The notes: generated from the letters alone by a model not told the origin. 64,000 nt of DNA from Candidatus Bathyarchaeota archaeon (GCA_963726255.1 CAVSBL010000002.1:96001-160000), one strand, 5' to 3'; counted from the stretch's first letter, positions 2,708 to 49,892 are shown. A program made the numbers and translations.

Positions 2708-2712
2708 TCTCT

Positions 2713-5632: not shown

Positions 5633-6895
5633 TTGGCCTCAATGGAATATGGTGATTCTTTCAAGGCAAAGCATCTCAAGGGATTGTCGCCGAGGGCGTT
5701 CTTTTGGATTTCATTATTCATTCTAAGCTCAATGGCCGTAGCTATCGAGGTCGGCTTCAGTGCCAATTATCTAACTCCGGTCACCGCGCCTCAGCTTTCA
5801 AACAATTCAACTTCGCAGGGGCTTATTGTTGACGTGTACACCGATAATGCCGGTCGAGGAGCAAACGTGCCGATCGGAACCTACACCGTGGGAGACTAAA
5901 TCAAATTCTACGTCTCACTCAGCCAAAATTGTTTGATAAAGCTTGAATTCATAACACCTGATGGTTCGATTTGGATTCACGAGGTGGCACTAGTAAGCGC
6001 TGGAACTTTCGTGGACTATTTTGAAGCGCAGTATCCCATCGGGCTATGGAGAATAGTGGTCGTAGCCCAACAGGGCTCAAGCACCGTCACGGAAACTGCT
6101 CCGTTTGAGGTGGTTGACAAGGCGCTCTATACTTTTACCCGAACAGTCTCATCCAACGCAAGTATCATTGAAGAAACCAGATTCGACGGGAAAGTCGTGC
6201 AGGTTTACCTATACCCGAGGGGAGGCGTTTATGGTTGGAACATATCGATCACACGCGTTTACCAAGGGCCAGAATCTATCAACACGACCGTGAGCGTTGG
6301 AGTAGTCACATATAATGAGGTTGTGAGCGTGTTGCCCAGCCTTCGTGCGGGCTACGTCGATCCAAACATCACGTTAGGAGATCAGGTGCAGGTTTACGGC
6401 TTGCTCTCTCAGAATACGGGCAAATTATCCGTCACCTTGAATGGTTCCGAGAATTACTACATCAAGAAAGCGAGCACGCTGTTCAACTCACCTGAAATCA
6501 TCTTGTTTGCAAGAGACGTATTTTCCGAAAATCTCACGGTAAGAATTGGCGGAATCGCTATCCCAGGAACCCAAAACGCCAAAATCACAACAGTGAACTG
6601 GAGTTGGGGAGACGGCCAAACCTCAGAACAACAATTTCCTGCAACCCACACGTACGACAAAGTAGGGACCTACGTCATTCAGATCAGCGCTACTCAAAAC
6701 GATGGCCTGTCGACAATCAAATCACTTTCAGTAACCGTCTCACCGAATGTGCACTCTGAAGCCGCGACTCAAACAACTGTTGCGAAAGCAAGTGATTCGA
6801 CGTTCGCCTTAGCAGCGGTCATAGCGACGATCGCACTGGTTTTGGTTGCAACCATACGATTCAGATTAAAGAAAGCGAAGTCAGCTACGACGTAG
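5633..6895 (+). pseudogene. PKD-domain cell-surface protein interrupted by an in-frame TAA at 5897-5899
   Basis: ORFs 5633-5899 and 5933-6895 are in the same frame (GTYTVGD*IKFYVSLSQNCLIKL); PKD motif WSWGDG...THTY; N- and C-terminal TMs. Confidence 0.75.
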
Positions 6896-7017
6896 TCGCT
6901 ACGGTACACCCACGCCAGGCTGTGTTTTGGAATAGTGCGATGCGACAAGTGCCATTATCTGTCACGGCGACAAGCGACCGAATACCATTCACAATCAAGT
7001 TGGCCACTAGTGGAAGC

Positions 7018-7110
7018 TGGTGGGCCTGGCCGGATTCGAACCGGCGACCCCACGATTTCTGAGAAGCACCCTATCAGTCGTGTGCTCCAGCCAAGCTGAG
7101 CTACAGGCCC
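7018..7110 (-). tRNA. tRNA-Ile(GAT) with a 15-nt canonical 37/38 intron (7057-7071), CCA encoded
   Basis: Minus strand GGGCCTGTAGCTCAGCTTGG...CACGA CT GAT A [intron] A TCGTG...GGTTCGAATCCGGCCAGGCCCACCA; clean bulge-helix-bulge (CTGA/TCAG). Confidence 0.95.
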
Positions 7111-7458
7111 TGCCGTGGGGGTGTGCTAATCCTTTTGTTTTAAGGATTTGTTCGCACTTCCGTTCAGGTTTAGTGTGTTGGTTATCTGTTTTTCAGAGAA
7201 TACGGACAGCTGAGTATCTTTCAAGGCTTGGCCAGTCCTGATGCGACATGTGCATGCTGTATATCTGATTCAGGTTTGGTCAGACGGTGGACAGTTCTCA
7301 CGATTCGGAGGTTTGAGTCGTGCAGATGTGTCGGGACCGAGTGTTCCCAGCTTGGGTTGAGGGGAACACATCTTTGCTTAGGGAGTATGTTCCATCTATA
7401 GAATCCATACGGCACTATGATTAGCATATACTTCGAGTGATGGTCCATCCAATGGAGT

Positions 7459-8022
7459 TTGAAGAACGTGCATGAGGTTAGATTTCACGGCCGAGCCGGT
7501 CAAGGCATACTGACCGCCAGCCGCCTGTTTGCTCAAGCCGCAATTCTGGACGGCAAGTATGCACAAGCGTTCCCCGACTTTGGTCCAGAACGATTGGGAT
7601 CGCCGGTAGCGGCATTTGCCCGCATCGATGACCAACCAATCGAAATCAGGAGCCAAATATACACCCCGACAGCTGTCGCAGTCTTCGAAAAAAGCCTGTT
7701 GGCGACAGTGCCTGTAACGCGAGGGCTCGTACCAGAGGGGCGTTTTGTGGTAAACTCCACAGAGTTAGAAGCGTCCGTTGTCAAGAAAATGAGTGATGAG
7801 TCCAAGGCATCCGCGTTTGTCGTCGACGCCTCTCGAATTGCAAGGGAACTAATCGGGACCCCCACCGTAAGCACGATAATGCTTGGGGCACTTGCGAACG
7901 CGTCTGCTTGCCTTAGCATCGAGGCCTTAGAATCTGCCGTGAAACAGAGGTTCCACGGCGAGTCGGGTGAAGTTAACGCGAAGATGGTTAGGATGGGGTT
8001 CAAGGAGGTTAAGCAAATTTGA
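7459..8022 (+). CDS. porG: Pyruvate/2-oxoacid:ferredoxin oxidoreductase gamma subunit
   Basis: EVRFHGRAGQG, QAFPDFGPERLGSPV. Confidence 0.92.
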   Translation: MKNVHEVRFHGRAGQGILTASRLFAQAAILDGKYAQAFPDFGPERLGSPVAAFARIDDQPIEIRSQIYTPTAVAVFEKSLLATVPVTRGLVPEGRFVVNSTELEASVVKKMSDESKASAFVVDASRIARELIGTPTVSTIMLGALANASACLSIEALESAVKQRFHGESGEVNAKMVRMGFKEVKQI

Positions 8023-8300
8023 AGGCTGCCGCAAAAGCTGGCTGGCGAGACATGGTTCGCGGCGCCGTAATTGTCGAACCAGGTTCTGCTAGAGAATTCA
8101 AGACTGGGGATTGGAAGACTAAGAAACCTATCTTGAATGAGGCGAAGTGTACCAACTGCCTCTTCTGTTGGATTTGGTGCCCCGAACCAGCAATTTTGCG
8201 CGGGCCGAAGGTCATCTCCTTCGACTACAACTATTGCAAGGGTTGCGGCATATGCGCAGTTGAATGTCCAGTCAAAGCAATCACGATGGAGGAGGAATAA
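8019..8300 (+). CDS. porD: Pyruvate/2-oxoacid:ferredoxin oxidoreductase delta subunit (2x[4Fe-4S])
   Basis: KTGDW; CTNCLFCWIWCP and CKGCGICAVECP. Confidence 0.93.
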   Translation: MKAAAKAGWRDMVRGAVIVEPGSAREFKTGDWKTKKPILNEAKCTNCLFCWIWCPEPAILRGPKVISFDYNYCKGCGICAVECPVKAITMEEE

Positions 8301-8303
8301 ACG

Positions 8304-9494
8304 ATGCAAAATACGAAGAAGACCCAACTGGTCCCGATGAGTGGGTCAGAAGCAATCGCAAAGGCAGTAATCCAGTCAAACGTGGATTTCATCTCAGCGT
8401 ACCCGATTACACCGCAGACAATAATTGTCGAACGCCTCAGCGACCTTGTGGCGGGCGGCGAGACCAAAGCGAAGTTTGTGAACGTAGAATCCGAACACTC
8501 TGCCCTCTCAGCGTGTGTTGGAGCGTGCCTGGCTGGTGGACGTGTCTTCACTGCAACTTCCAGCCAAGGCTTGGCTCTGATGCATGAAGTCCTCTACCTT
8601 ACGTCAGGTCTTAGGTGCCCAATTGTGATGGCGGTCGCCAACCGAGCACTCTCGGCTCCCATCAGCATTCACGGCGATCACTCCGACATGATGGGGTCAA
8701 GAGATTCCGGGTGGATTCAACTCTACGTTGAGAACGCGCAGGAAGGATACGATTGGATAATGCAGGCCTACCGAATTGCAGAAGATGAGCGTGTCTCATT
8801 ACCGTTCACGGTAAACATGGATGGCTACGTGATAACGCACTCAGTTGAACCACTAGAACTAGTCAATCAGAGCGAAGCAAACAAGTTTCTACCCGCGAGA
8901 CAATCTAGCCTGAAGCTCGACACCAAAAAACCAATTACGTTTGGGACGCTAACCCTACCTGACTACTACACGGAGTTCAAGAAACAACAGGACGAGGCGA
9001 TGCGAGCCGTCCCGGAAGTCTTCAACGAAGTGACAAAAGAATTCGCTGAACTAACGAGCCGCCGCTACGAGGAGATTACCCCTTACGCTATGGAAGACGC
9101 GAAGGTAGCGATCGTTTCCCTAGGGAGCGCATCAGGGACGGTGAGATGGGTCGTCCGCAATCTACGAAAACAAGGCCTACCTGTGGGCGCGATGAAAATC
9201 GCACTCTTCAGGCCATTCCCACATGAACAGGTCGGGAAACTGCTTGAACACCTCGATGTCGTAATAGTCCTAGAACGAGCCCTTAGCATAGGCGCCCATT
9301 GTGGGCCACTAGCCAGCGACGTAGTCTGCTCACTCTACAACCGCTCAGGGCAACCAAGAGTCTTAGATGTGGTAGCTGGGCTGGGAGGCCGCGACCTCTC
9401 GCCCGACAGCATTGAACAGATCTTCCGGACCGGGCTTGGAGCCGCTTCAAGGCCCACGGGCCTAGAGATGGAATTTGCGGGGGTGCGAGAGTAG
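8304..9494 (+). CDS. porA: Pyruvate/2-oxoacid:ferredoxin oxidoreductase alpha subunit
   Basis: AYPITPQT, VESEHSA, ATSSQGL, GLGGRD. Confidence 0.94.
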   Translation: MQNTKKTQLVPMSGSEAIAKAVIQSNVDFISAYPITPQTIIVERLSDLVAGGETKAKFVNVESEHSALSACVGACLAGGRVFTATSSQGLALMHEVLYLTSGLRCPIVMAVANRALSAPISIHGDHSDMMGSRDSGWIQLYVENAQEGYDWIMQAYRIAEDERVSLPFTVNMDGYVITHSVEPLELVNQSEANKFLPARQSSLKLDTKKPITFGTLTLPDYYTEFKKQQDEAMRAVPEVFNEVTKEFAELTSRRYEEITPYAMEDAKVAIVSLGSASGTVRWVVRNLRKQGLPVGAMKIALFRPFPHEQVGKLLEHLDVVIVLERALSIGAHCGPLASDVVCSLYNRSGQPRVLDVVAGLGGRDLSPDSIEQIFRTGLGAASRPTGLEMEFAGVRE

Positions 9495-10415
9495 ATGCCA
9501 ACCCTCAGAGAGCTGCAAGTCGAAGAACTATACGGCCCAGGACATCGACTCTGCGCTGGTTGCGGCGCATCGATCACAGCCCGAATGACATTGAAAGCCC
9601 TGAAACGGCCGACGTATGTCGTTAACGCAACCGGTTGTCTTGAAGTAGCAACGACGATCTACCCCTACACCGCTTGGCGGGTCCCTTGGGTTCACGGGCT
9701 GTTCGAAAACGCACCAGCCATAGCGAGTGGAGTCGAGACCTACCTGAAATCAATGAACGGCGGGAAGCTGGATGCGGACATAGTAATATTCGGCGGCGAC
9801 GGCGGAACTTTCGACATCGGTCTACAAGCGCTTTCAGGAGCTTTCGAAAGAAGGCACGACTTCGTCTACATATGTTATGACAACGAAGCGTACATGAATA
9901 CGGGAATTCAGCGTTCCAGCGCGACACCCGAAGGGGCTTGGACAACAACCACGCCAATCGGCGTAGCATCGCCGGGGAAGACAGGGCCGAAGAAAGATCT
10001 TGTCGCGATCGCACTAGCACACCACGTAGATTACGCGGCCACAGCCTCAACCGCCTATTGGAGCGACTTCATAACTAAAGTTCAGAAGGCAGCAGCGGTC
10101 GATGGCCCGGCCTTAATTCACGCAATCGCCCCCTGCCCGCTGGGCTGGCGTTTCAAGACGGAACAAACAATCCAGATGGGAAGGCTCGCGGTTCAAACTC
10201 GCTACTTCCCCCTGTATGAAGTTGAGAGAGGAAAGTACAAGCTCAGCTTCAACCCTCATGTTGAACCACTCGAAACCTTCCTCCGCATGCAGGGACGATT
10301 CAGCCACCTATTCCTGCCTCAGTACACTGACGAGCTGAACACTCTGAAGGCCCAGGTGGAGCAGCGGTGGGCCGCGCTCCAAGAACTCTGCCAGGGAAAA
10401 TATCCCACTTGGTGA
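9495..10415 (+). CDS. porB: Pyruvate/2-oxoacid:ferredoxin oxidoreductase beta subunit
   Basis: GHRLCAGCG; TPP motif GGDGG...DNEAYMNTGIQRS; PCP. Confidence 0.94.
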   Translation: MPTLRELQVEELYGPGHRLCAGCGASITARMTLKALKRPTYVVNATGCLEVATTIYPYTAWRVPWVHGLFENAPAIASGVETYLKSMNGGKLDADIVIFGGDGGTFDIGLQALSGAFERRHDFVYICYDNEAYMNTGIQRSSATPEGAWTTTTPIGVASPGKTGPKKDLVAIALAHHVDYAATASTAYWSDFITKVQKAAAVDGPALIHAIAPCPLGWRFKTEQTIQMGRLAVQTRYFPLYEVERGKYKLSFNPHVEPLETFLRMQGRFSHLFLPQYTDELNTLKAQVEQRWAALQELCQGKYPTW

Positions 10416-10455
10416 CGTTATCAAGCCGAAGTCAGCCGTATGGAGGTGAGAATGT

Positions 10456-10587
10456 TTGGGGACAATAGGGAGATGCGCCGAGTGCCGGGATTGCTACGGT
10501 AACAATTGCTCACAATGTACGATATGCGGAGCTGGGTCATATGAGGTGTGTCTTCACTGCCCACCGAGTATGACCTTAGGCGGGTGA
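10456..10587 (+). CDS. Unannotated 43-aa eight-cysteine microprotein (MGTIGRCAECRDCYGNNCSQCTICGAGSYEVCLHCPPSMTLGG)
   Basis: Translated by hand; perfect Shine-Dalgarno GGAGGTGA at 10442-10449, 6 nt before TTG; CxxCxxC-x4-CxxCxxC-x7-CxxC spacing. Confidence 0.6.
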   Translation: MGTIGRCAECRDCYGNNCSQCTICGAGSYEVCLHCPPSMTLGG

Positions 10588-10618
10588 AGGGGTCGACAAA
10601 CCCGCCGTTGTTTTTTCT
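10579..10618 (+). terminator. Hairpin plus T-tract, putative terminator of the por operon/microprotein transcript
   Basis: GGCGGGT(10579-85)...ACCCGCC(10600-06) followed by gttgttttttct. Confidence 0.5.
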
Positions 10619-10640
10619 CTAATCAGCATACTGCTCGAAT

Positions 10641-10654
10641 AAACCGTTTAAAGG
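10641..10654 (+). promoter_or_regulatory. BRE/TATA promoter of tRNA-Ala
   Basis: aaaccgTTTAAAgg about 25-30 nt upstream of the tRNA 5' end. Confidence 0.6.
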
Positions 10655-10676
10655 AGAGCTGGTTTTCTAGGGCTCG

Positions 10677-10794
10677 GGGCCGGTAGTTCAGCCTGGTATA
10701 CTCAACTTTCGGCTGGGGCCAAAGAACGTCCGGTTCGCATTCCTTTGAAAGAAAAACCGGAAGGCCGCGGGTTCAAATCCCGCCCGGTCCACCA
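10677..10794 (+). tRNA. tRNA-Ala(CGC) with two introns (D-arm ~21/22, 10700-10723; canonical 37/38, 10740-10755)
   Basis: GGGCCGG/CCGGTCC acceptor stem with the G3:U70 Ala identity pair; TCCGG-TT-CGC-A..A-CCGGA; TTCAAAT T-loop; CCA; BHB-like junctions. Confidence 0.92.
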
Positions 10795-10847
10795 AAATTT
10801 CATGACGATTCTTATGCTACGTTTCAAGTAAGTCTTTTAGCCAGTAA

Positions 10848-11921
10848 TTGAGAATGCCAGGGGAATCACTAACGCTAGGCGCTGTGGACATGCCAGTGAC
10901 TACACTCGACAACAATTCTTCGAGAGATGGCCTGGTTCATCAGTCCATCATACTCACAATTGTTGCGGCTATAATTGCGCTAGCGGCCGTTTTGAAGTCG
11001 CCAGAGCTATCAGCGGTCTTCTTTTCTCTCTTCACTAGGCTTCCGCAATTTTCTGAGCTCTACGCTCACTTCGATGCGGCGTTTATCCGAGGCCAGGCGG
11101 AAATGTTGCAAAGTCTCTCGGGCCAGATGATGGCTAAAGGAGAATGGGGCTCATTCGACTTCAGACCCCGATCTCTACCCTTTGGTATGAAACTGAAATA
11201 CCTGTTCGTGGTTGCGGCGACGGACATTTCAGTCATCATTCCGACATTGAATGAGGAAAAATACCTGCCCAACTGCCTCAGCTCGCTCATTAACCAATCA
11301 AGGAAAGAATTCCGTGAAATTATCGTCGTAGACGGGGGAAGCACCGATCAGACCGCTCAGGTGGCTCAAAAATACTCCGATAGCGTCCTGGTGAAGCCAG
11401 GGCAAACTGTGGGGGCATCTCGAAACATCGGTGCGTTAGCAGCCAAGGGTGAAATTCTCGCCTTCATAGATGCAGACACCATTGCCTCTGTTGACTGGCT
11501 CGAAGAAATTTCCCGCTCGTTCCATGACGATCCAGGGGCGGTTGGGGTAACAGGCCCAACACTGCCTTACGGGGGAACCAACTTGGACCAACTTGCTTAC
11601 CACGTAGCTACGGGATGGGCGCAACGGTTTTCGTTGAAACTCGGTCTACCCCATGTTGCCGGATTCAACTGCGCATACAAGAAGGAATCTTTCTGGGACG
11701 CAGGAGGATTCGACGAGAGCAGGGAGCTCTCCGAGGACGTGATGCTCAGCCTAAGAATTCGTCATCAGGGGCGTATAATCTTCAACCCTGACATGATGGC
11801 CTACACGTCGCTCAGGAGAATCAAGAAATACGGCTACCCTTACCTGACAACATACTACGCGATTAACGCTGCCATGCTGCTACTGTTCAAGAAGAACCTC
11901 GGATACCCTAAGGTCCGTTGA
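10848..11921 (+). CDS. Glycosyltransferase family 2 (true start likely near 11187-11208)
   Basis: ISVIIPTLNEE, VVDGGSTD, FIDAD (DxD), SEDV. Confidence 0.9.
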   Translation: MRMPGESLTLGAVDMPVTTLDNNSSRDGLVHQSIILTIVAAIIALAAVLKSPELSAVFFSLFTRLPQFSELYAHFDAAFIRGQAEMLQSLSGQMMAKGEWGSFDFRPRSLPFGMKLKYLFVVAATDISVIIPTLNEEKYLPNCLSSLINQSRKEFREIIVVDGGSTDQTAQVAQKYSDSVLVKPGQTVGASRNIGALAAKGEILAFIDADTIASVDWLEEISRSFHDDPGAVGVTGPTLPYGGTNLDQLAYHVATGWAQRFSLKLGLPHVAGFNCAYKKESFWDAGGFDESRELSEDVMLSLRIRHQGRIIFNPDMMAYTSLRRIKKYGYPYLTTYYAINAAMLLLFKKNLGYPKVR

Positions 11922-28330: not shown

Positions 28331-30022
28331 TTAATCGCAGGCGGGTCGTGGATTCCACAACTTTGACAATAGACTGCCCCCACTCTTCGGAGCTTGAGCC
28401 GCTTGTGTTGGCCCGCTTGGTTTTCTGCGCCTGGAGGCGACGATAACCGCACCGACGAGTAGGATGACGGCAGCGAGTATCAGCAATTGGTTTTGCTGAA
28501 GCATGCTCGTCAAATCTCCGACCACTGGGCTGGGAGCCTGCGTGCTTGTTTGAGTTGATGTCTGTGTGGCTGGATTAATGTTCAGGACGAGGTTGGCAGC
28601 TCTGTTTACTCCACCGCCAGCCCCGGTTACTATTAATGTGAATGGTCCGGTGGGTGCGTTCGCTGGGAGCGTAACTGTAAGCGCTGAAGTAAAGTCTGGG
28701 GTTCCGGATGTAACGGTGAAAACCCCGTTGGCGCCGGACGGTAATCCTGACACGGACAAAGTGACTTGCGAGTTGAAACCGTTCAAACCGACCACGCTGA
28801 CCTGGTATGTGGTTGTTCCTCCCTGGGTCGATGTCTGGGATGGGGGGTTCACGTCTATTCTGAAGTCTGGTGACTGCCCAACCGTTAGCATGAATGCGGC
28901 TGTGTGTGATGTTGTTCCAGCGGTGCCCGTGATCGTTAAGGTGTACTTTCCAGAGGCCGCAGACGCTGTTGTTGTGATGGAGAGTATTGAACTGAACTTT
29001 GGCGTCCCTGATTTCGGATTCAGCGACGCAGAGACTCCCTTCGGAGCGCCAGTAACTTTCAAAGCCACGTTCTGGGACGTTCCCGATAACAGGCCGACCG
29101 TAACCGTTGAGGTTGTGCTTGCTCCGGGTGTGATGGTCCGTTGCGCTGGTGAGGCTGAGATGGAGAAGTCGAAGGGCTGTACCGTCTTCACCGTCAGAAG
29201 AGCGTTCGCCTGATGCTTCACGCCATGCGAAGAGCCGGTGAGAGTGACAGGGTAACTGCCCGGGGGAGTTGAGCTGGAGGTTGAAACCCGTAGGGTGGGT
29301 GGACTTGGTATCACCTGGTAATTCATTCCCGGGCCCAGGCCCGAGACCTGAATGTTGATGGTAGTACCGCTGTAGGAGGGGTCGCTGTAGGATATGAGGA
29401 CCTGAAACGTCGCAGTGTCACCCTGCTTCACCGTAACAATAGCCGGGGACAACCCGAGGCTGAAATCGAACGGGGTTGTCGCGGAGGTTATAATGACGTG
29501 TGTCACAGCGGTTTTCACGGCGGTTGTCGCGGAGGTTGTCGCCGCGGTTGTCGCGGAGGTTACAATGACGTGTGTGGGGGGAGCCACTTGGACCACTTGG
29601 AAGTAAGCAGATCCCAGTGCTACTATTTCGCCGCTACCTGACTCATCGACACCCACCACGGCAATATAGTTATTTCCAGGAGTGCTTAGGCCGGGAGGGG
29701 ATACTCGGTAAGTCAACTCGGGTGCTACGTTCATGATGGGTGCACTATCCCAAATGTGCGGATATGCCAAAGCGGGGCTCTTGCTCCAGTCATAAGTTGT
29801 AATACTTACGCGGGCAATTTCCATACCCGTCCACGCTATCCCAGCAGTTGCGATCCGGAAAGCAATCGTGAACGACTGGCCTACGGCCACAGATGTTGGA
29901 CTAACAGATACGTAAACAGTCCCCCCAGGCGCATTTACGGCCATAGTAACACCGCCCACCGACACGGCAAATAGGAGCAAAATCGCTAGACCGGATCTAG
30001 CTCGCAAAATCTCAATACTCAT
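28331..30022 (-). CDS. Ser/Thr-rich cell-surface protein with tandem Ig-like repeats and a C-terminal TM
   Basis: Signal peptide; three (F/P)DF..(S/N)P...G.T repeats; TM plus RRRK; C-terminal zinc ribbon (YCQSCG) sits out of frame. Confidence 0.8.
   Translation of the reverse strand: MSIEILRARSGLAILLLFAVSVGGVTMAVNAPGGTVYVSVSPTSVAVGQSFTIAFRIATAGIAWTGMEIARVSITTYDWSKSPALAYPHIWDSAPIMNVAPELTYRVSPPGLSTPGNNYIAVVGVDESGSGEIVALGSAYFQVVQVAPPTHVIVTSATTAATTSATTAVKTAVTHVIITSATTPFDFSLGLSPAIVTVKQGDTATFQVLISYSDPSYSGTTINIQVSGLGPGMNYQVIPSPPTLRVSTSSSTPPGSYPVTLTGSSHGVKHQANALLTVKTVQPFDFSISASPAQRTITPGASTTSTVTVGLLSGTSQNVALKVTGAPKGVSASLNPKSGTPKFSSILSITTTASAASGKYTLTITGTAGTTSHTAAFMLTVGQSPDFRIDVNPPSQTSTQGGTTTYQVSVVGLNGFNSQVTLSVSGLPSGANGVFTVTSGTPDFTSALTVTLPANAPTGPFTLIVTGAGGGVNRAANLVLNINPATQTSTQTSTQAPSPVVGDLTSMLQQNQLLILAAVILLVGAVIVASRRRKPSGPTQAAQAPKSGGSLLSKLWNPRPACD
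29474..29575. repeat. Intragenic tandem repeats encoding a T(S/A)ATT linker
   Basis: Repeated ggttgtcgcggaggtt units and a duplicated (ta/ca)atgacgtgtgt. Confidence 0.7.
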
Positions 30023-30630: not shown

Positions 30631-32307
30631 TTGCACGAAACGAGAAGACCGGGGTTGCCCATTTCAGCGCGGCCACTTTTGACGCTGCTCGTCTGCATAG
30701 TCATCGCTGGCCTTTTCATCCCAACTGTTCGTGCGCAGGCAACTTACGCGGTTTCAATAACAATCGCGGGCCTCCCCACCACAATTAGCACGAATGTCTA
30801 CGTCGACGGGTCATTCAATACGACGATGGTCGGTGGCCAGACAAGCTCCTTCAGTTTCGCAACTTCAAACATAGGCCATGTGATTACGGTAGACTCCTAC
30901 ACCCCAAGCAGCATCGGTGCAAACGGCACCCGATACTATGAGCAAGAAGCATCATGGGGTTTCAGCGCGTCAGGAAACCATGTTTTCACCTACACGGCGC
31001 AGTACTATCTTACTGTACAGTCATCCTACAGTACTGCGACCGGTCAGGGATGGTACAACTCCGGTGCGTCAGCACAGGCAACTGTTCAAGATCGTCAGAT
31101 TGACGAAGGCCAGGGGACGCGGCAAGTATTTGCTGGCTGGTCGGGAGATGCATCTGGCACCGATACGAGTTCGAATAGCATCCTGATGAGCGGGGCAAAA
31201 ATTGCCATAGCGAACTGGAAGACACAGTTTTTCTTGACGGTTGAATCGGACCCGCCCAATGTCTCGAGTCTTGCCGGTTCTGTGTGGTATGATTCAGGGA
31301 GTCAGGCTACTTTCTCAGTAAATGCGATTGTCACGGCCACAGACAATACGCGGCTGAAGTTTGATCACTGGAGCGGCGATTACACAGGCCAGTCGCTGAC
31401 CGGCCACATAGTGATGGACAGGCCGCATACAGTTAAGGCCAATTTCCTCGCCCAATACCTACTTACCGTTCAGTATGATCCCGCTACCATTTCAACCAAA
31501 TACAATGAATCTGATGCGGGCTGGTATAATGCCAACGCAAACGTTCAACTTGGGCCGGCTCCCTTGACCCTCGATTTGAGTTCCATCGAACGGCTTCGTT
31601 TCGTTGGGTGGGTTGACAATGGATCATCTTTCCCGACCCCATCGTACACGGTGGTGATGGATCAACCGCGTACAGTCACCCTATCGTACAATACACAGTA
31701 CTACGTGGACGTCCGTTCTTCGCATGGTTCAGTTTCCGGTTCGGGATGGTACGATCGCGGGGCGTCCGCGAAGATTACTGTTCTGGCGGACGGACAAAGT
31801 TGGCCGATAACATACGCTCTCACCGGTTTGCGGCTCGACCCACCAACGGGGGTACTCCAGAAAACTGGTGATTCGTGGAACCTGACAGTCGACAGGCCAT
31901 ATGTTGTTGAAGCCCAGTGGAGCTTTGACTACTTCCCGCTGATCGCAATACTTGGCGGTGGAGGACTAGCAGCCATTCTCAGCGTTGGAATCGTACTCGC
32001 GTATAGGCGAGGTGTTTTCAATCGCAAAGCGCAAAAATTCCACCCACCAGTAGGCTCACCCACGCTCGTCGCCGCAACGCAGGTTTGCAGCACGTGTGGG
32101 AATCTTGTGCCGAAAGGCGCATTTTGTGAAAAGTGCGGCGCGCCGTTGGAAATGCCCGCGGCTTCATCAGACGAAAAAGTATTCGATTACATCGTGAAAC
32201 ATGAAGGTGTCATATCATTAAGCAAGGCTTCATCCGATCTCGGAATTCCTGTGGGCGAACTCAAGGAAATAACGGAGCGGCTGAAGAGTCAGGGGCGCCT
32301 GACCTAA
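30631..32307 (+). CDS. Single-pass membrane protein: extracellular beta repeats, TM, cytoplasmic zinc ribbon and winged helix
   Basis: Repeated QYYLTV...GWY..G...F.GWSGD units (InlB B-repeat/thermopsin-like); CSTCG...CEKCG; C-terminal wHTH-like segment. Confidence 0.8.
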   Translation: MHETRRPGLPISARPLLTLLVCIVIAGLFIPTVRAQATYAVSITIAGLPTTISTNVYVDGSFNTTMVGGQTSSFSFATSNIGHVITVDSYTPSSIGANGTRYYEQEASWGFSASGNHVFTYTAQYYLTVQSSYSTATGQGWYNSGASAQATVQDRQIDEGQGTRQVFAGWSGDASGTDTSSNSILMSGAKIAIANWKTQFFLTVESDPPNVSSLAGSVWYDSGSQATFSVNAIVTATDNTRLKFDHWSGDYTGQSLTGHIVMDRPHTVKANFLAQYLLTVQYDPATISTKYNESDAGWYNANANVQLGPAPLTLDLSSIERLRFVGWVDNGSSFPTPSYTVVMDQPRTVTLSYNTQYYVDVRSSHGSVSGSGWYDRGASAKITVLADGQSWPITYALTGLRLDPPTGVLQKTGDSWNLTVDRPYVVEAQWSFDYFPLIAILGGGGLAAILSVGIVLAYRRGVFNRKAQKFHPPVGSPTLVAATQVCSTCGNLVPKGAFCEKCGAPLEMPAASSDEKVFDYIVKHEGVISLSKASSDLGIPVGELKEITERLKSQGRLT

Positions 32308-32738
32308 AAGAGCGAGAAGGGGGAACGGGCCTGCTGCTCACTCGCAACCGCGTATTGTCCGAGTGGAGCGCCTAGTTTGGGAGCTAATCCCCAGTAACAT
32401 TCTGTGCAGAGGCTTAGAGCCCCGTATTGCCTGTTACAGGCTGCGCAAATCGACCTGCCGCATCTTGAACATATGAACGATGATGGGAGCTCAGAGTGAT
32501 AGTAGCAGCTTCCCTGTCTTTGGCCCTGTCTTGAAACGTACGTGGACGGAGCGATTGGAGCGACCGGAGTTGGTTTCATGGAGGGAGTTAAGGGCGATCG
32601 CACTTCAACCTTCACAGGTGGTCCACGGGAAACCATCGCACCGCATTTGAAACAGTACTTTGCATCCCCAGAGTTGGGTGAGCCGCAAGCCGGACACATC
32701 GACATGCTGAAATCCCAACATCCATTGGCATCAAGCAT
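32304..32738 (-). CDS. Zinc ribbon plus B-box-like zinc finger protein (start likely 32705)
   Basis: CPACG...CFKCG; CYYH-x7-CSRCGRSICAAC-x8-CTEC. Confidence 0.8.
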   Translation of the reverse strand: MLDANGCWDFSMSMCPACGSPNSGDAKYCFKCGAMVSRGPPVKVEVRSPLTPSMKPTPVAPIAPSTYVSRQGQRQGSCYYHSELPSSFICSRCGRSICAACNRQYGALSLCTECYWGLAPKLGAPLGQYAVASEQQARSPFSLF

Positions 32739-32861
32739 TTCTTAACGGTTGCTTAGGGCGGAAAGGGTTCGTCCATCCCAATTCGGCGTGAAATGTGGCA
32801 ATCCATGGGAGTTGGAATGACCCGCGTGCAAAAGTGTGACACGGTTATTACAAAATTCACA

Positions 32862-34106
32862 CTATGTAAGCCTTAGAATTGATTCGTGAAACTCTCCGTT
32901 CTTGTCTTCGCCGAGAACTCTGAGATAGTCCCCCCGGGCGATACCCTTTCCTAGCCTTGAATGCCCGTCAAGTAGTCTTGAACCCTCTGAAGTTTCCGCT
33001 AGGACGTTCAATGTTCCGGCTTTGATTTTGGTGTGATGGCGGATAGTTCCTTCCAAACTCTCCTTCGAACTATGGGCAACCTCGAACGGCAAATCAGCCC
33101 GTTGGGCAGGTTCTCTAGTCGTCCCTTCCTTTCCGCACACGAAGCATTTCTCACCACGTTTCAAGTCAATCGGGGTGTACCGATTATTCTTCAAATCCAT
33201 GAACAAGACAGATCTGAGGGGTTGACCGCTGGTTCCAGGCCATTTTGCGTTCGCCCGGTATTCCTTCATCCCTAGGATCAGCTTGATTGTTTCCTGGGCA
33301 AGTATTGATGAGACCAGTGAAATCGTCGTTGCAAAGGATGGAACGGCCTCCTGCTCCAACGGTGCATCACATGGGTTTCGTAAGCCAACGATCTTAGAGT
33401 ACTGGTTGGGCGGAAACATGCATACAGGGCACGCATCGTCGGGCGGTAGATAGACATGTACTCTACCGTTCAGCCCGGTGATTCCCCCGTCAACTAATGG
33501 GATGGAGTATTTTCTGCAAATCTGAGTTAGGAAAATTCGCGAGACGACATTGTCGAGCCCGCAAACAACTACGTCCGAATCCAAATAGAACTTCAGAGGC
33601 ATCTTCTCGAGGTCGCCCCTGAAGGCAATCGTCTGAACGAAAGGGTATTTTCTGTGGAGGTTTCCTGCCAGAACCTCGGCCTTATTCCGTCCTAGGTCGT
33701 TTTGTTGAAAGAGCACCATGCGGCTAACGTTAGACATTTCGACAATATCCCGGTCTACAATGAAGACTCTGCCGACTCCTAACATGGCTAGGTTCTTGGC
33801 CACCTCGTTCCCGATGGCGCCGGCCCCAGCGAGTAGCACCGATGAATCCCTTATTCTCCGCTGGCCTTCTGGCCCCCAAACGAGCAAGTGTCGCGCCCAA
33901 AGGTAGTCAACGGTCACTTTGCCCTTGATTTTCGACAGTCGGCTTTGTTCCGGGAGGAGTTTGCCGCCTGCCAGCAGATTGGTGAGATCTGGTTCAATGC
34001 CTAGTTTCTTGCAAATTATTTCCTTGACGTCCTTCACCGTCTTGTTTGGGTTCAGCTCCACTTCGAGCTCTTTGTAGGAAGGGAGCGAGGCTCTTATGCG
34101 CATCAA
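32862..34106 (-). CDS. Ubiquitin-activating enzyme E1 (ThiF/MoeB fold) with an N-terminal ubiquitin-like domain
   Basis: N-terminal beta-grasp pattern (TVKDVKEIICKKLGIEP...LLAGGKLL); GAGAIG, DRD..E.SN.SR, GLDN; CPVC/CFVC zinc pair; putative catalytic Cys in RNPCD. Confidence 0.9.
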   Translation of the reverse strand: MMRIRASLPSYKELEVELNPNKTVKDVKEIICKKLGIEPDLTNLLAGGKLLPEQSRLSKIKGKVTVDYLWARHLLVWGPEGQRRIRDSSVLLAGAGAIGNEVAKNLAMLGVGRVFIVDRDIVEMSNVSRMVLFQQNDLGRNKAEVLAGNLHRKYPFVQTIAFRGDLEKMPLKFYLDSDVVVCGLDNVVSRIFLTQICRKYSIPLVDGGITGLNGRVHVYLPPDDACPVCMFPPNQYSKIVGLRNPCDAPLEQEAVPSFATTISLVSSILAQETIKLILGMKEYRANAKWPGTSGQPLRSVLFMDLKNNRYTPIDLKRGEKCFVCGKEGTTREPAQRADLPFEVAHSSKESLEGTIRHHTKIKAGTLNVLAETSEGSRLLDGHSRLGKGIARGDYLRVLGEDKNGEFHESILRLT

Positions 34107-34696
34107 GAAGACGCTCGTCGTGCCCGTCCAGGGATATCGAACCTAACTATGTCATCTGCGCCTAAAGATTTGGCCAATTCGGGGACAGGGACTACGTTGA
34201 AGCGGACAATATCGTTGGCTTCCTTATTCGTCGGCCTAGCTTTCGTCATCTTGGGAAATCCGTAGGAGCGACAAACGCCTGCTGCTTTGAGCGCCCGGGG
34301 GTTATCAAAAACACTCTGAGGGTTTGGATCCGTCAGAAGGTAATGTAACGCGTTGACGACAGATACGAGTTTCAGCCTGGGGTCCCATTTTTCTCCGAGT
34401 ATTGAAACGCATACGGCATTCGGTATTTTCGGGACTATGTTTGGATGGGCGATTTCCGTAAGCCAGGTAGCCACGGGTGGCTTCAACGGGTATTCTGGGG
34501 GAATATCAAGTCTGAAGCGGTGCCAATTCGTGTAATCCGTGAAGGGCCAGACTCCCTTCTCGGACAGCTTCATGACTTCCCCTTTCTCGCAGCGAATGAG
34601 CCCTTCGAATTGAGTAGGTGGGTCGTCGATGGCAGTGATTGTAGGGAACTGATGGTTGAGCAGGCTCTTTTCCTTCAGCAGCAACGAGACATCCAA
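34103..34696 (-). CDS. Ubiquitin-conjugating enzyme E2 (UBC fold)
   Basis: IPPEYPLKPP, HPN motif, catalytic Cys in AVCVSIL, WDP, LLTDPNP. Confidence 0.92.
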   Translation of the reverse strand: MDVSLLLKEKSLLNHQFPTITAIDDPPTQFEGLIRCEKGEVMKLSEKGVWPFTDYTNWHRFRLDIPPEYPLKPPVATWLTEIAHPNIVPKIPNAVCVSILGEKWDPRLKLVSVVNALHYLLTDPNPQSVFDNPRALKAAGVCRSYGFPKMTKARPTNKEANDIVRFNVVPVPELAKSLGADDIVRFDIPGRARRASS

Positions 34697-34707
34697 ATCT
34701 AGCCAGC

Positions 34708-34974
34708 CTACCCGCCGATGATGTTGTATGGCATGAGTGCAAGCTGAGCATTTTCAGGAATGCCTAATCTTGCAACGGTGGTACTCTCGTCTAGTATCGC
34801 GCCTCCATACATGAGAGCCACGGTGCTCGGGTCAACGTTGAACGATTGGCAGACCTGTTGCTTTATTTCCGCAACTGTATGGTCTGGGATTACATCGATC
34901 TCCGCTAGGCCAGTCTGGGGGCCGATGGGCGCTTGGACGAACAGTTTCATTTGTCGTGTTTCACCTCCACTCAT
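34708..34974 (-). CDS. Eukaryote-like ubiquitin-fold modifier ending in Gly-Gly
   Basis: MKLFVQ...TVAEIKQQV...LMYGGAILDESTTV..LGI...L.L....IIGG-stop; Shine-Dalgarno-like ggaggtga before the internal ATG at 34950. Confidence 0.9.
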   Translation of the reverse strand: MSGGETRQMKLFVQAPIGPQTGLAEIDVIPDHTVAEIKQQVCQSFNVDPSTVALMYGGAILDESTTVARLGIPENAQLALMPYNIIGG

Positions 34975-35160
34975 GCTGGGCCTTCATTTTCGCAGATGAG
35001 CTTAAACTGTCTTGCTATGAATCGGTTGGTGCGTGAAGGTAAGGTCCTCGGCCCGGGCGGCTCTTGCTGGGTACATGGGGTGTATTGTGAGGCTGGGAGG
35101 CCGATTTGGTCACCTTCCGTTCCGGAGTCTTCGTGTAGCGTCGTGGTCTTCATATTCATT

Positions 35161-36315
35161 TTATTCAGCCAGCTGCGGTGCGGAACCCTTTGAACCGCGA
35201 ATGATGAGTCCGATTGAAGCGACCTCAATCCACAACAGTATTGATCCGATGGACAGTCTATCAGCAAGACCTGCGTACGGGGCGGAAATCGAGACGAGGC
35301 CGAGGACACCCAGGGTAAGCGCGATTGGTAGCATTACGATACTGAAACGGTCGTAGCCTTTCCAACGTGGGTCGAGACGGAATTGTAGCCAAAAGAGAGC
35401 AATCGCTGCAAGCGAGAAGAATGCAATAATTCCTGTGATGACTAAGTGCAGCATGCCCAATACAGCGAACGGAGGACTGGCGGTATAATCTTGCGGGAAA
35501 AGAAAGAGAACCAGGCCCCCAGCGCCTGCGGCGACTAGGAACGCCGAACCCCAAATGTGTCTGGCTTCTTTCTGGATTCCATAGTATAGACCAACCGCCA
35601 GAAGGATCAAGCAAACATCGTAGAAGGCGAAAAGAGGCACCATTATGACTTGGTTAGGAGCACGTGAAGAGAGAAGAGTACTCACCGTCTCGCTATAGTG
35701 TGAGTACCCAGGCCACAAGAAACCGCCAATCAAGACGGCGGCGATATAGACAATAGGACCAACGGCTCCGAAGATTCCAAGTACGCGTATCCCGGAATTA
35801 GACTGCTTCACTTCGACTGTTGGTATCGCAGCAGGAGGCGCCGCTCTTGCCTCGGGCCGAACCGCCGCCGACCGCACGGTGTAGACTGTAATTCTTTCAC
35901 CAGGTATACGGACGGCTTGCCCACTCGAAGGCTCTACGCGAAAGAAGCCTACATCGCCGGTCGAGGCGTCTACGACCATTCCAGAAATGAGGGTTGAAAA
36001 CTGTTGGAGTACTGATTGCGTGGCGATGTCTGTTTGCGAGAAGAAGAGCCCACCATGGGTGTGTGAGTGGTACCAGCCGACAATATTGCCCTTTATCCGG
36101 CCGGTCACAATTCCGTCCGCAATTTCGGCCAACGCTTTCGATGAGAGGATTGCCCGGTGCGGCTCGGTGGCGGATTCACCAGTGACTGAGTCTTCGATTA
36201 TTATGGTATTGTCTTGAAACCGCCCTATCAGTACGCCGATTATTTCATTCTTAGTCGTGCGCGCAGCCCGGACTATTTTATCGTTAACGGGCTTCGCTAT
36301 GCTCACGTAGGACAA
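35161..36315 (-). CDS. JAMM/MPN+ metalloprotease fused to a DUF998-like multi-TM domain
   Basis: EIIGVLIG...GWYHSH-x7-S..D JAMM motif; C-terminal PGYSHYSETVSTL and 5-6 TMs. Confidence 0.88.
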   Translation of the reverse strand: MSYVSIAKPVNDKIVRAARTTKNEIIGVLIGRFQDNTIIIEDSVTGESATEPHRAILSSKALAEIADGIVTGRIKGNIVGWYHSHTHGGLFFSQTDIATQSVLQQFSTLISGMVVDASTGDVGFFRVEPSSGQAVRIPGERITVYTVRSAAVRPEARAAPPAAIPTVEVKQSNSGIRVLGIFGAVGPIVYIAAVLIGGFLWPGYSHYSETVSTLLSSRAPNQVIMVPLFAFYDVCLILLAVGLYYGIQKEARHIWGSAFLVAAGAGGLVLFLFPQDYTASPPFAVLGMLHLVITGIIAFFSLAAIALFWLQFRLDPRWKGYDRFSIVMLPIALTLGVLGLVSISAPYAGLADRLSIGSILLWIEVASIGLIIRGSKGSAPQLAE

Positions 36316-36370
36316 AGCCTACACCAAGAAACCGGAAGGAGACAAAAAATTGGGAATGATTATTGTGCCG

Positions 36371-37144
36371 CTAGCGTCCTAGCATGCCGAGTATTCCACC
36401 CAGCACGCCCAGAACGAATCCGGCCACGAAGCCACCGCCGATCAACAGGCTCAAGACCGCAAGTGGAAAGACGACTATGCTGCCTATGGTTCCGTATCCT
36501 AGTAGCATCAGTATTGACCCGATTACCAGTATGAGCCCGATTATCGCTCCTATAGCGAACGTCAAACTCGCCGGGCCAACAGCTGGCAACCAGAAGAAGA
36601 CGCCTGTCCATAGAGTGTAGAAGCTCGGTGAAAGCAAAGCTGCTGCGTTAAGTATCACAAGTATACCTGCGATCATTGCTAGTATGAAGCCCCAGAGCGC
36701 TCTCGGGGGAGCAGGTTGGTAAAGCGGGGGCAATGGTCCCATGAAGGGAGCCGGCGCTGCCATTGGGGGTGGACCGTAGGCGGGTTGCATAGGTGGCATT
36801 TGCATCGATGGCATTTGCTGTTGTGGAGCTGCTACCATCGGTACTACGCCTTGGTAACATTGCGGACAGAGTACAAGGTCCATGTAGGCCTTCGAGTCGT
36901 CGCGGCAGATTGCTCTTCCACAACGGTTGCAAACATAGACGGCGGGTAGGTTAGGGTGATAGTAACATTGGCCAGGTGCTGGAACCCTGATCGGGCTGCC
37001 AGGGCTGACAGGTGTTACAACGCGGACTGAAGGGACTGGTTTGAGCATGGGTCCTGCTGCGCCTGCGAGCGATGAGCCACAGCTTGAGCAGAATGCTGCG
37101 TCGTCGCGGTTGTTGTAGCCGCATGCTGGGCATTTTCTGACCAT
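36371..37144 (-). CDS. Zinc ribbon, B-box-like finger, Pro/Met-rich linker and C-terminal TMs
   Basis: CPACG...CSSCG; CYYH-x7-CNRCGRAIC...CPQC; 3-4 hydrophobic helices; Shine-Dalgarno aggagg upstream. Confidence 0.8.
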   Translation of the reverse strand: MVRKCPACGYNNRDDAAFCSSCGSSLAGAAGPMLKPVPSVRVVTPVSPGSPIRVPAPGQCYYHPNLPAVYVCNRCGRAICRDDSKAYMDLVLCPQCYQGVVPMVAAPQQQMPSMQMPPMQPAYGPPPMAAPAPFMGPLPPLYQPAPPRALWGFILAMIAGILVILNAAALLSPSFYTLWTGVFFWLPAVGPASLTFAIGAIIGLILVIGSILMLLGYGTIGSIVVFPLAVLSLLIGGGFVAGFVLGVLGGILGMLGR

Positions 37145-37560: not shown

Positions 37561-37669
37561 GCCCCGGTGGCTCAGCCTGGTAGAAACAAGACAACGCCAA
37601 AAGCGCCGCCTTGGTAACGAACAGACAAAGAGGCGAAGGTCGTGGGTTCAAATCCCGCCCGGGGCTCCA
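37561..37669 (+). tRNA. tRNA-Thr(GGT) with two introns (D-arm 37584-37601; canonical 37617-37630)
   Basis: GCCCCGG/CCGGGGC acceptor stem, T discriminator, CCA; CCGCC-TT-GGT-A..A-GGCGA (one C:A mismatch); TTCAAAT T-loop. Confidence 0.9.
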
Positions 37670-38697
37670 ACTTCTGTCAGACCGTCAATGGGCCGGATTC
37701 TGACCCATCTGCGACCTTGTTTTTCATAGAGGCGTCTCCATTCGATAGCGGCTCGTCGTGCGTCATATGACTCTAGTAGGCGGAGGGCGACGGACATCTT
37801 CTCGTGCTTTCTTTCCAGTCCGAACCCGATGACTTCACAAAATCGCTTTTGATCCAGCCGGCTCGAAATGGTGAGATGATAACATCGACGTTTGCTCCAC
37901 ATTGGCTTTCGCTTTCTCTCTTGGAAGATTCTTGAACGTATGCCGAACCGCGTTTCTAACAATCCTTGGATGTACACCAAAAGCCAATGCTTAGTGTTGA
38001 CCAGGACGACATAGAGGGCGAGATTACGAACAATCTCAGAGGTGCTAGATGATCTTGTGTAGACTGAAACTACTGGCGAGCCTTCGGCGTCCGCAAATCC
38101 CCTTATGAACTCGGAGGGATAGACACCTGTAGTTTCCCGAATTCTTTGCCAATCTGAGAGGAATTCAAAAAGCAATCTGCTCCAGAATCTAACTACAAAG
38201 AATCCTTTCTTATCGAAGAAGGGCAGCTTCTTTTTTCCCAAGACAACGCTCGCGCAAGTTGCTACAGTTTCGGCGAATTGCCGATCTCTCACCCTCAATC
38301 GCAATTCATAGTGGAATGCACTGCTTTTGATAAGGGCACCATCGCCGAGAAAGGCGCCCGCAACATAGCTCAATGAAGTAGAAGGACGAAGGTCTGGATT
38401 CGTGCAGCTACCAAAAGGGGAGTTTATTCCACGTAACCAATTGTACACAGTGGGACATGGAAGTCCCAGCAGCTTGGCAATCCGAGTGTGATCCATGCCT
38501 CGCTCTCTGTTTAGTTCTAGCACAACCGGGTATGCAGCCACCCTCTCAGCCAGCGAAATCCGCCTGGACGTTTTGACTGGCATGGATAAATGTCCAGTAG
38601 CTTTGACAGATGTTGCCGGTCATTAGTATGAGAGCTTAGTGAAAGTGTTCTGAGATAATCGCCTGACTTGTGGGTTCAATTCCCGCCCGGGGCTCCA
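37642..38697. mobile_element. ~1 kb tRNA-integrated element bounded by 28-bp direct repeats and carrying only a LAGLIDADG gene
   Basis: gtgggttcaa(a/t)tcccgcccggggctcca at 37642-37669 and 38670-38697 (27/28 identical). Confidence 0.85.
37648..38583 (-). CDS. Free-standing HTH plus double-motif LAGLIDADG endonuclease
   Basis: HTH (RIAKLLGLPCPTVYNWLRG); LAGLIDADG helices LSYVAGAFLGDG and SEFIRGFADAEG; no intein splice motifs. Confidence 0.9.
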   Translation of the reverse strand: MPVKTSRRISLAERVAAYPVVLELNRERGMDHTRIAKLLGLPCPTVYNWLRGINSPFGSCTNPDLRPSTSLSYVAGAFLGDGALIKSSAFHYELRLRVRDRQFAETVATCASVVLGKKKLPFFDKKGFFVVRFWSRLLFEFLSDWQRIRETTGVYPSEFIRGFADAEGSPVVSVYTRSSSTSEIVRNLALYVVLVNTKHWLLVYIQGLLETRFGIRSRIFQERKRKPMWSKRRCYHLTISSRLDQKRFCEVIGFGLERKHEKMSVALRLLESYDARRAAIEWRRLYEKQGRRWVRIRPIDGLTEVGAPGGI

Positions 38698-48262: not shown

Positions 48263-48372
48263 TGGTGCCGGGGGCGGGGTTCGAACCCGCGGCTTCTGGG
48301 CCCACGGCTCTCCAGATTATGAGTTTCGTCCCTTAAGCCTGGCTGGCGCTCTACCAGCTGAGCCACCCCGGC
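48263..48372 (-). tRNA. tRNA-Met(CAT), elongator type, with two non-canonical introns (30/31: 48325-48342; 45/46: 48294-48309)
   Basis: GCCGGGG/CCCCGGC-A-CCA; CCAG[intron]A-CT-CAT-AA-TCTGG; perfect BHB (CTGG/CCAG) in the variable loop. Confidence 0.9.
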
Positions 48373-49779: not shown

Positions 49780-49892
49780 GCCTCGGTGGCTCAGCCTGGT
49801 AGATGCCCTACATTGGGCACTGGGGAGCAGCCGCCTTGTAACTGAATCAGGAGAGCGGCAGGTCGCGGGTTCGAACCCCGCCCGAGGCTCCA
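49780..49892 (+). tRNA. tRNA-Thr(TGT) with two introns (D-arm ~49803-49825; canonical 49841-49853)
   Basis: GCCTCGG/CCGAGGC-T-CCA; GCCGC-CT-TGT-A..A-GCGGC; TTCGAAC T-loop. Confidence 0.92.

Follow-up and report, generated by a model that had tools for sequence, protein, structure and literature searches.

Which proteins stand in for the RING ligase in an archaeal ubiquitin operon in which no RING is visible? The question is raised by a group of minus-strand genes at positions 32304-37144 of a 64,000-nucleotide (nt) stretch of DNA (hereafter the window; GCA_963726255.1, CAVSBL010000002.1:96001-160000) from a soil archaeon, a metagenome-assembled genome (MAG) of Candidatus Bathyarchaeia comprising 2.42 Mb on five contigs (98.5% complete, 9.3% contamination). 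A first-pass annotation had described a complete, membrane-tethered operon for a ubiquitin-like modifier (Ubl), an activating enzyme (E1), a conjugating enzyme (E2), a JAMM isopeptidase and two B-box-like finger proteins, here called F1 and F2, at the place where a RING-type ligase (E3) is expected. According to the open reading frames (ORFs) and Pfam, the six genes are indeed present in the order F1-JAMM-Ubl-E2-[Ubl-E1]-F2, but a conserved seventh gene on the opposite strand had been left out. Judged from sequence, the operon is a real, conserved feature and a variant of the archaeal ubiquitin systems, and we see about an even chance that F1 and F2 serve as its E3 ligases or adaptors. The genes are given below with window coordinates, lengths in amino acids (aa) and Pfam E-values.

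36371-37144, minus strand: F1, 257 aa, with Zn ribbon, linker, B-box-like module, Pro/Met-rich spacer and membrane domain
35161-36315, minus strand: JAMM/MPN+ isopeptidase with DUF998, 384 aa, JAMM at aa 4-113 and DUF998 at aa 185-366
34708-34974, minus strand: Ubl modifier, 88 aa, ending in NIIGG directly before the stop codon, ubiquitin 1.8e-10
34103-34696, minus strand: E2, 197 aa, divergent UBC core with HPN and Cys96, UQ_con 6.4e-17
32862-34106, minus strand: Ubl-E1, 414 aa, Ubl domain at aa 11-60 and ThiF at aa 72-283
32304-32738, minus strand: F2, 144 aa, soluble paralogue of F1, Zn ribbon at aa 15-32 and module at aa 78-114
30631-32307, plus strand: seventh gene, for a receptor-like protein, convergent with the operon, its 3' end overlapping that of F2 by 4 nt

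The catalytic motifs claimed as intact can be read directly in the three enzymes, i.e., E...HSHTHGGLFFSQTD (HxHx7Sx2D) in the JAMM protein, HPNIVPKIPNAVC (HPN...C) in the E2, and GAGAIGNE in the E1. Pfam assigns the JAMM protein to JAB (3.3e-11), Prok-JAB (1.4e-9) and DUF998 (PF06197; 6.7e-21, 75.2 bits against a cut-off of 30, with residues 185-366 aligned to positions 2-181 of 184), and the E1 to ThiF (4.9e-51) with an N-terminal ubiquitin domain (1.8e-6). The SAMP-activating E1 model of NCBIfam matches the E1 at 4.9e-29, which is below its cut-off, and the C-terminal part of about 82-85 residues matches no Pfam family. The E2, the only one encoded in the genome, exceeds the UQ_con cut-off but spans only profile positions 47-122 of 140; its H84, P85, N86 and C96 are invariant in 41 sequences. 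The E2 stop and the E1 start overlap by 4 nt, and the C-terminal tail of the E2 (window 34103-34250) bears two DIVRF(N)(V)VP-like motifs. Because the Ubl ORFs of most relatives begin at MKLFVQAP (80 aa), the Ubl of the present genome probably starts at its second Met, and some orthologues extend past the Gly-Gly, e.g., with GGTL in locus L096 and GGR in L072. Metatranscriptome contigs from four libraries of three studies (90-99% alike) overlie parts of all six genes; these are contigs of relatives with possible DNA carry-over, uninformative for the uncovered parts, and we do not count them as proof of expression.

The two finger proteins are paralogues (cross-hits of 1e-17 to 1e-23) that share a Zn ribbon, a linker and a module. 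Their ribbons exceed Pfam cut-offs, with DZR at 1.2e-7 on F1 and Zn_Ribbon_1 at 7.4e-6 on F2, and that of F1 occupies aa 5-22 with the spacing C-x2-C-x10-C-x2-C. The linker of F1 contains the conserved motif KPVPSVRVVTPV (aa 35-46, window 37007-37042), that of F2 reads PPVKVEVRSPL (window 32580-32621). In both proteins the module, located at aa 60-96 of F1, has the ligand pattern C-x2-H-x8-C-x2-C-x4-C-x2-[C/D]-x9-C-x2-C; the sixth ligand is an Asp in F1 (CRDD), and all ligands of F2 are Cys save one His. Across 43 module sequences, the six Cys never vary and the His is kept in 90% or more, and the positions invariant in 18 F1 orthologues are C5, C8, C19, C22, K35, C60, H63, C72, C75, C80, C93 and C96.

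We call this finger a putative two-zinc cross-brace that is B-box-like and, by every model tested, non-RING. The Pfam family zf-B_box (PF00643) matches F1 with an E-value of 0.0056 (17.3 bits) and F2 with 0.0018 (18.8 bits) at a cut-off of 24.1 bits, which is exceeded by one module paralogue elsewhere in the genome (28 bits). F1 and F2 remain below every RING cut-off, the best model being Prok-RING_1 with 16.1 bits versus 29.1 (E 0.011 for F1). Among PDB sequences, the module profile matched the B-boxes of CONSTANS, PML and TIF1-beta at E 0.025-0.16, the sole class aligning from the first ligand pair; the top matches, C2H2 fingers of PRDM9, were discarded as spurious (repeated YVCRECGR). The closest named Atlas clusters carry zf-B_box on 32-46% of their members (score 0.89, to be read at the level of a lead). 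The label rests on the sub-threshold Pfam matches, the 28-bit paralogue, the B-box alignments in the PDB and the Atlas neighbours.

Structural matches of the module are weak. In the AlphaFold 2 (AF2) model of F2, confidence is confined to the two fingers (blocks at pLDDT 77-92, the module at 84-92), and Foldseek retrieved nothing from the PDB for it at E <=0.001, its top rows being LIM, ribosomal Zn ribbons and NZF with a poor root-mean-square deviation (rmsd). An all-against-all structure search with the same model placed the FYVE domain 2yw8 first (Z 4.7, rmsd 2.1 over 47 residues), followed by RIM/rabphilin, RING, PHD and the piggyBac cross-brace finger, none of which reaches Z 5, and the module profile aligned with archaeal small RINGs at 59.7% probability over 39 columns (the last three ligand pairs). 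B-box is still the best sequence label, as had been proposed, but it lies below the Pfam cut-off, and the fold search favours FYVE/RIM/RING cross-braces (Z <=4.7). Identification of the Zn ribbon as a ubiquitin-binding NZF was also considered, using what we take to be the sequence determinants of that domain on the ribbon of F1, and rejected as unsupported: the spacing C-x2-C-x3-N-x6-C-x2-C fits, yet the aromatic residue after the second Cys varies among orthologues, and DZR and Zn_Ribbon_1 score far above RanBP in Pfam. In a search for fused forms among 308 longer proteins, the best 120 are F1/F2-like throughout, and in none of them is the module joined to an E2, a JAMM or a Ubl.

No RING or U-box above cut-off was detected in the 98.5%-complete genome with the models zf-RING_2 (PF13639), Prok-RING_4 (PF14447), Prok-RING_1 (PF14446), zf-C3HC4 (PF00097) and U-box (PF04564) and a profile of archaeal RINGs. 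The weak matches in this genome are no better than those in control genomes without a ubiquitin system, and on the small RINGs of related clusters these models reach E-values near 1e-10. The statement that the cluster has no RING consensus is borne out by these searches and extends to the rest of the genome.

How the slot of the ligase is filled elsewhere in the phylum was seen in a 401-genome sample, where other families have a canonical E2 (e.g., f43, 17/17; f48, 24/24) that covers profile positions 1-139 at 1e-26 to 1e-31, compared to positions 47-122 at about 1e-17 for the present E2. Four RING-type Thermoproteota loci (L182-L185), possibly from Caldarchaeales, were fetched from it; small ORFs were called down to 55 aa in these loci, and further small RINGs may have escaped. 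The JAMM gene is divergent from Ub-E2-E1 in this layout. Directly after E1, i.e., in the slot of F2, two of the four loci encode a RING of 76-80 aa (zf-RING_2 about 1e-10), and in three of four a protein of 231-250 aa that has four hydrophobic spans and ends in a RING is encoded nearby, which parallels F1. From these positions it follows that in either type of cluster a soluble finger encoded after E1 has a membrane-bound counterpart, and that the finger type alone differs. Five RING-type genomes contain only weak module matches (best 4.5e-12), none at the ubiquitin locus. As side observations, a conserved 257-266-aa gene without a Pfam family adjoins the JAMM gene in L182-L185 and a coiled-coil gene of about 280 aa follows the small RING; both may belong to the RING-type system.

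The best-known cluster of that type, the Caldiarchaeum subterraneum operon, consists of Rpn11 plus Ub-E2-E1-small RING (srfp) according to three reports (PMC3082918, PMC5654768, PMC6043591), and one of them describes reconstitution of the cascade together with its RING (PMC5654768). The present operon shares with this type a Ubl with Gly-Gly, one E2, a ThiF-type E1, a JAMM and a zinc finger directly after E1. It differs in the fingers, which are Zn-ribbon plus B-box-like instead of RING, in a Ubl that requires no processing in the present genome, and in three peculiarities, namely, the N-terminal Ubl on the E1, the fusion of JAMM to a membrane domain and the linked receptor-like seventh gene.

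Conservation was surveyed in two samples: 20 loci around the E2 from the own genus and nine other families of the same order, and, independently, 79 loci retrieved with F1, of which 59 are archaeal (L052-L110). A long F1 is present in 53 of these 59 loci, and at least 6 kb follow it in 42 of the 53. With the present genome (G000) counted, 35 of 41 relatives have the E2, and the gene order F1-JAMM-Ubl-E2-E1-F2 recurs at all 20 E2 loci, one of which is cut by a contig end and two of which have no downstream F2. In the F1 sample, Ubl, E2 and E1 lie downstream of F1 in 39 of these 42 loci, i.e., in all but L053, L079 and L093, and a JAMM match lies in between in 32 of the 39. Among the 38 loci that extend far enough beyond E1, a script places F2 next to E1 in 32; L092, in which the called ORFs overlap and which was read by eye, raises this number to 33. 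Because the arrangement recurs in 20/20 and 39/42 loci it is non-random, and the finger genes are kept beside Ubl, E2 and E1 in relatives, as the earlier proposal requires.

The fingers also track the E2 across Bathyarchaeia. We scored 301 Bathyarchaeia genomes for an E2 over the cut-off, found in 54, and for a strong finger module, found in 58 (E <=7.4e-19, a threshold chosen after a gap had been seen, with the next-best genome at 2e-12). The strong module is present in 54/54 E2-positive genomes, versus 4/247 E2-negative ones (G020, G155, G158 and G291, which are 88, 90, 98 and 69% complete, respectively). As relatives share descent, these numbers reflect a handful of joint gains or losses and not 54 independent events. 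The four genera of the own family read as follows.

Genus g1: E2 in 12/13, module in 13/13
Genus g14: E2 in 7/8, module in 8/8
Genus g2: E2 in 0/19, module in 1/19, weak
Genus g3: E2 in 0/3, module in 1/3, weak

Family f9 of the same order has no E2 (0/7) and weak module matches in 2/7 genomes, and in G051, from another family of the class, E2 and module stand side by side (L096). Weak module matches in the E2-less orders of Bathyarchaeia belong to a small family of module plus transmembrane (TM) proteins, whose copy in the present genome lies at C2:303644-304060. Taken together, the absence of RING, the conserved finger genes and the co-occurrence in 301 genomes uphold the earlier claim of a variant cascade.

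Position, co-occurrence, absence of RING and a predicted cross-brace fold are the grounds on which we assign F1 and F2 a putative role as E3 ligases or adaptors. The order E1 to E2 to target is established for these protein families. The Gly-Gly end of the Ubl would be adenylated by the E1 and handed to the single divergent E2 for the presumed conjugation. F1 and F2 would take the role of the RING in Caldiarchaeum-type clusters, F2 as a soluble ligase or adaptor and F1 as a membrane-anchored one, and would deliver E2~Ubl to targets, probably the cytoplasmic tails of membrane proteins, of which the neighbouring receptor-like protein with its Zn-ribbon/helix-turn-helix (HTH) tail is the prime candidate. 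The membrane-bound JAMM would strip the tag again and, in relatives with residues after the GG, also mature the Ubl. That such a system is inherited vertically within a single bathyarchaeial order and acts on the cytoplasmic side of the membrane we regard as an evenly balanced proposition.

Several observations weigh against this assignment. E2 binding and ligase activity are properties that we infer for the fingers, whose module is below the Pfam B-box cut-off and has only fold matches with Z <5, a level that the tool rates as common; a complex prediction of the E2 (41-row alignment) with residues 1-110 of F1 scored 0.00 and carries no weight for or against binding. Archaeal RINGs have a basic residue after the last Cys pair (CPICKR, CPICRR), presumably the "linchpin" of the RING, where the module has Tyr, Phe or another residue. 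The module fold is not ubiquitin-specific, because module proteins also sit away from ubiquitin genes, with three in the own genome and weak ones in E2-less Bathyarchaeia and in RING-type genomes. In one clade (L074, L076, L077) F2 is off the operon, with an F2-like gene on another contig of the same assembly (L105-L107), and in 3 of 42 F1 loci no ubiquitin genes follow downstream. Finally, the invariant Lys35 of the F1 linker could equally well be an acceptor site or form part of a docking motif.

This last point leads to a different role for the fingers, namely, that of dedicated targets or regulators: the E2 alone would modify K35 in the linker of F1 and thereby switch a membrane function, which the JAMM would reset. 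Bacterial E1/E2/JAB operons (CBASS Cap2, Bil) act without an E3 on dedicated targets, which fits such a scheme, as does the fact that K35 and the KPVPSVRVV motif are invariant in 18 F1 orthologues, with a similar PPVKVxV in F2, and that F1 holds only three lysines. The strict co-occurrence with the E2 suits a target as well as a ligase. The explanation is less economical, however, in that a soluble and a membrane paralogue occupy the exact RING positions of related clusters, and the strongest conservation is found in the two-zinc module and not in the lysine alone; we consider it unlikely, if clearly worth keeping in mind. If the fingers are targets, an E3-less archaeal cascade with dedicated substrates would be informative too.

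The fingers might instead be general membrane and zinc-ribbon proteins that happen to lie beside a RING-less, E3-independent Ubl system, or the Ubl and E1 might serve mainly in sulphur transfer. Proteins with Zn ribbon, B-box-like module and TM do exist without ubiquitin genes, and the databases name the fingers only "zinc ribbon domain-containing protein" or "hypothetical". The strong F1/F2 subfamily nevertheless tracks the E2 over 301 genomes and was lost together with it in genera g2 and g3, and an E2 with HPN-Cys and a JAMM speak for protein conjugation, all of which makes both variants improbable. About as improbable is an antiviral defence akin to Bil/CBASS-Cap2, in which viral or host proteins would be tagged upon infection. 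The E1 does match PADLOC E1-E2 models (best 2.4e-17) and BilD (1.8e-8) and the JAMM protein matches JAB (8.9e-4), but these matches are confined to generic adenylation and JAB cores, and the Ubl, E2, F1, F2 and seventh gene match no PADLOC family. Moreover, a single gene order in the sampled genera of nine families, absent from f9 (0/7), and partly shared flanks argue for vertical inheritance and not for a patchy defence island.

As regards the membrane, the hydropathy supports part of what had been claimed. A Kyte-Doolittle scan counts three hydrophobic spans in F1 (within aa 153-241) and six in the JAMM protein; Ubl, E2, E1 and F2 have none, and F1 and JAMM are membrane proteins by this measure. 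The contrast with known clusters was overstated, however: the membrane link is not peculiar to the present variant, because RING-type loci encode the four-TM RING protein in three of four cases and a JAMM with a hydrophobic tail in one, the other three JAMM proteins having no hydrophobic span. Among relatives, as far as predicted spans show, the link is conserved and its form variable. The usual JAMM protein of relatives, about 500-550 aa long, consists of JAMM, a single hydrophobic span and an extracellular part. In L096 it has 212 aa with one C-terminal span, in L072 the order is Zn-ribbon-JAMM-TM with the ectodomain encoded separately, and L098-L104, L085 and L100 have only a single-pass surface protein without JAMM between F1 and Ubl. 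The JAMM-DUF998 fusion is restricted to the subclade of the present genome (L032, L033, L034; full-length E-values). One more surface protein of the window is related to these ectodomains:

28331-30022, minus strand: surface protein with signal/TM, Ig-like repeats and C-terminal TM, spans at aa 5-23 and 512-530

It matches the JAMM ectodomains and the gene between F1 and Ubl of L098-L104 (phmmer E 1e-10 to 1e-24) and may be part of the system.

Of the 38 loci that extend far enough, 34 have a homologue of the seventh gene immediately behind E1/F2 in convergent orientation, and in L096 it lies upstream. Its product begins with a signal/TM segment, continues with extracellular InlB-B-repeat domains (Pfam Flg_new_2, 1.4e-10) and a second TM, and ends in a cytoplasmic tail (aa 462-558) with Zn ribbon and three-helix HTH. 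The last approximately 50 residues of the tail are best conserved across 38-41 homologues, and its Zn ribbon is present in most of them but not all. AF2 models the tail at pLDDT 70 as a Zn ribbon plus three helices, which match HTH folds of the Lrp/AsnC/MarR type with Z up to 8.0 (a level also rated as common). The gene suggests, as a hypothesis, that the system has surface proteins as its clients, by way of their cytoplasmic tails. In its most elaborate form this would be a receptor-coupled pathway, in which the surface protein senses the outside, F1 and the E2 tag the Zn-ribbon/HTH tail, and tagging or untagging by the JAMM controls the HTH as a membrane-tethered transcription factor; we think it a long shot. 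If true, archaea would have a counterpart of the pathways in which membrane-bound transcription factors are processed with the help of ubiquitin, and the B-box-type ligase in charge of it would be older than the TRIM proteins.

Three further module proteins are encoded in the genome outside the window, which brings the number to five:

G000:C2:866551-866955, plus strand: Zn-ribbon plus module protein, 134 aa
G000:C2:303644-304060, minus strand: module plus 3-TM protein, 138 aa, beside ribosomal protein genes
G000:C2:897087-897638, minus strand: module protein with an F1-like membrane domain, 183 aa

As five finger proteins exist alongside a single E2, they could form a small set of alternative adaptors. 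The motifs in the E2 tail and in the finger linkers are all short, Val-rich and beta-strand-like, and they might dock on one and the same site, e.g., a surface of the Ubl.

Some B-boxes of eukaryotes have ligase activity. The module resembles those of TRIM, CONSTANS and PML in its first six ligands (C-x2-H-x7/8-C-x2-C/D-x4-C-x2-C), in being a putative two-zinc mini-domain, and in the Asp ligand of some members (CRDD in F1, CSRD in L096), whereas its last pair is C-x2-C after nine residues instead of H-x2-H after a shorter spacer. Unlike eukaryotic B-box proteins, F1 and F2 have neither RING nor coiled coil; both contain a Zn ribbon of prokaryotic type, to which F1 adds a membrane domain. Burroughs, Iyer and Aravind reportedly treated RING and treble-clef fingers of prokaryotes in 2011. 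In the openly accessible literature on archaeal ubiquitin and on prokaryotic B-box and treble-clef fingers, we found no description of a B-box-like, membrane-bound operon type. For single-cell genomes of MCG, a "ubiquitin protein modifier system" is mentioned by Saw et al. (2015; PMC4571567). Bacterial Ubl operons (Bil, CBASS Cap2/Cap3, 6A-MBL) have E1, E2, JAB and Ubl together, according to bioRxiv 10.1101/2023.09.26.559546 and PMC11601596. Such co-encoding in a prokaryote is common to them and the present operon, which differs in its separate E1 and E2, its eukaryote-like Ubl and its vertical descent in one archaeal order.

Archaeal ubiquitin systems are regarded as forerunners of the eukaryotic one, and, to our knowledge, the sole reconstituted archaeal example employs a RING ligase. 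If F1 and F2 are ligases or adaptors, the ligase slot would have been interchangeable among cross-brace fingers already before eukaryotes. In the present operon it would be held by B-box-like fingers, one of which is membrane-bound, as is the protease, and a receptor-like protein is linked as a partner; the system would point to the control of membrane proteins as an early use of ubiquitin. Ubl, E1, E2 and F2 would form a small soluble set for testing a B-box-type fold alone as E3.

Three further loci or groups of loci were noted in the surveys. In L053, of the same genus, F1 is followed at 987-9799 by two large convergent genes (703 and 1,092 aa) and no JAMM, and the E2 of what is seemingly the same contig lies about 10 kb off by its coordinates, which looks like a lineage-specific insertion into the cluster. 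L109, a contig titled Thermoprotei archaeon, harbours a distant variant at 6140-11897, in which Ubl and E2 form one continuous protein of 291 aa (ubiquitin 2.2e-7, UQ_con 1.1e-13, LIGG at the junction). A Ubl-E1 adjoins it, and the opposite strand encodes a JAMM-TM protein of 595 aa and a Zn-ribbon/module/TM finger of 156 aa. Complete archaeal operons also occur on contigs filed as Methylomirabilota, Acidoferrum and Acidiferrales (L056, L063, L089), bacterial bin names that probably result from mis-binning.

Elsewhere in the window, the 3' end of an archaeal large-subunit (LSU) rRNA occupies 1-821, and tRNA matches of 90-110 nt at 7018-7110, 48266-48372 and 49780-49889, one of which ARAGORN could not assign, fit intron-bearing archaeal tRNAs. 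A further tRNA match of 106 nt, at 37561-37666 on the plus strand (Rfam, 38.8 bits), is of a length that leaves room for an intron. Its 3' end is overlapped by a 311-aa ORF at 37648-38583 on the minus strand (LAGLIDADG_3 1.9e-13 plus an N-terminal HTH), which may be a homing-endonuclease-like gene beside the tRNA.

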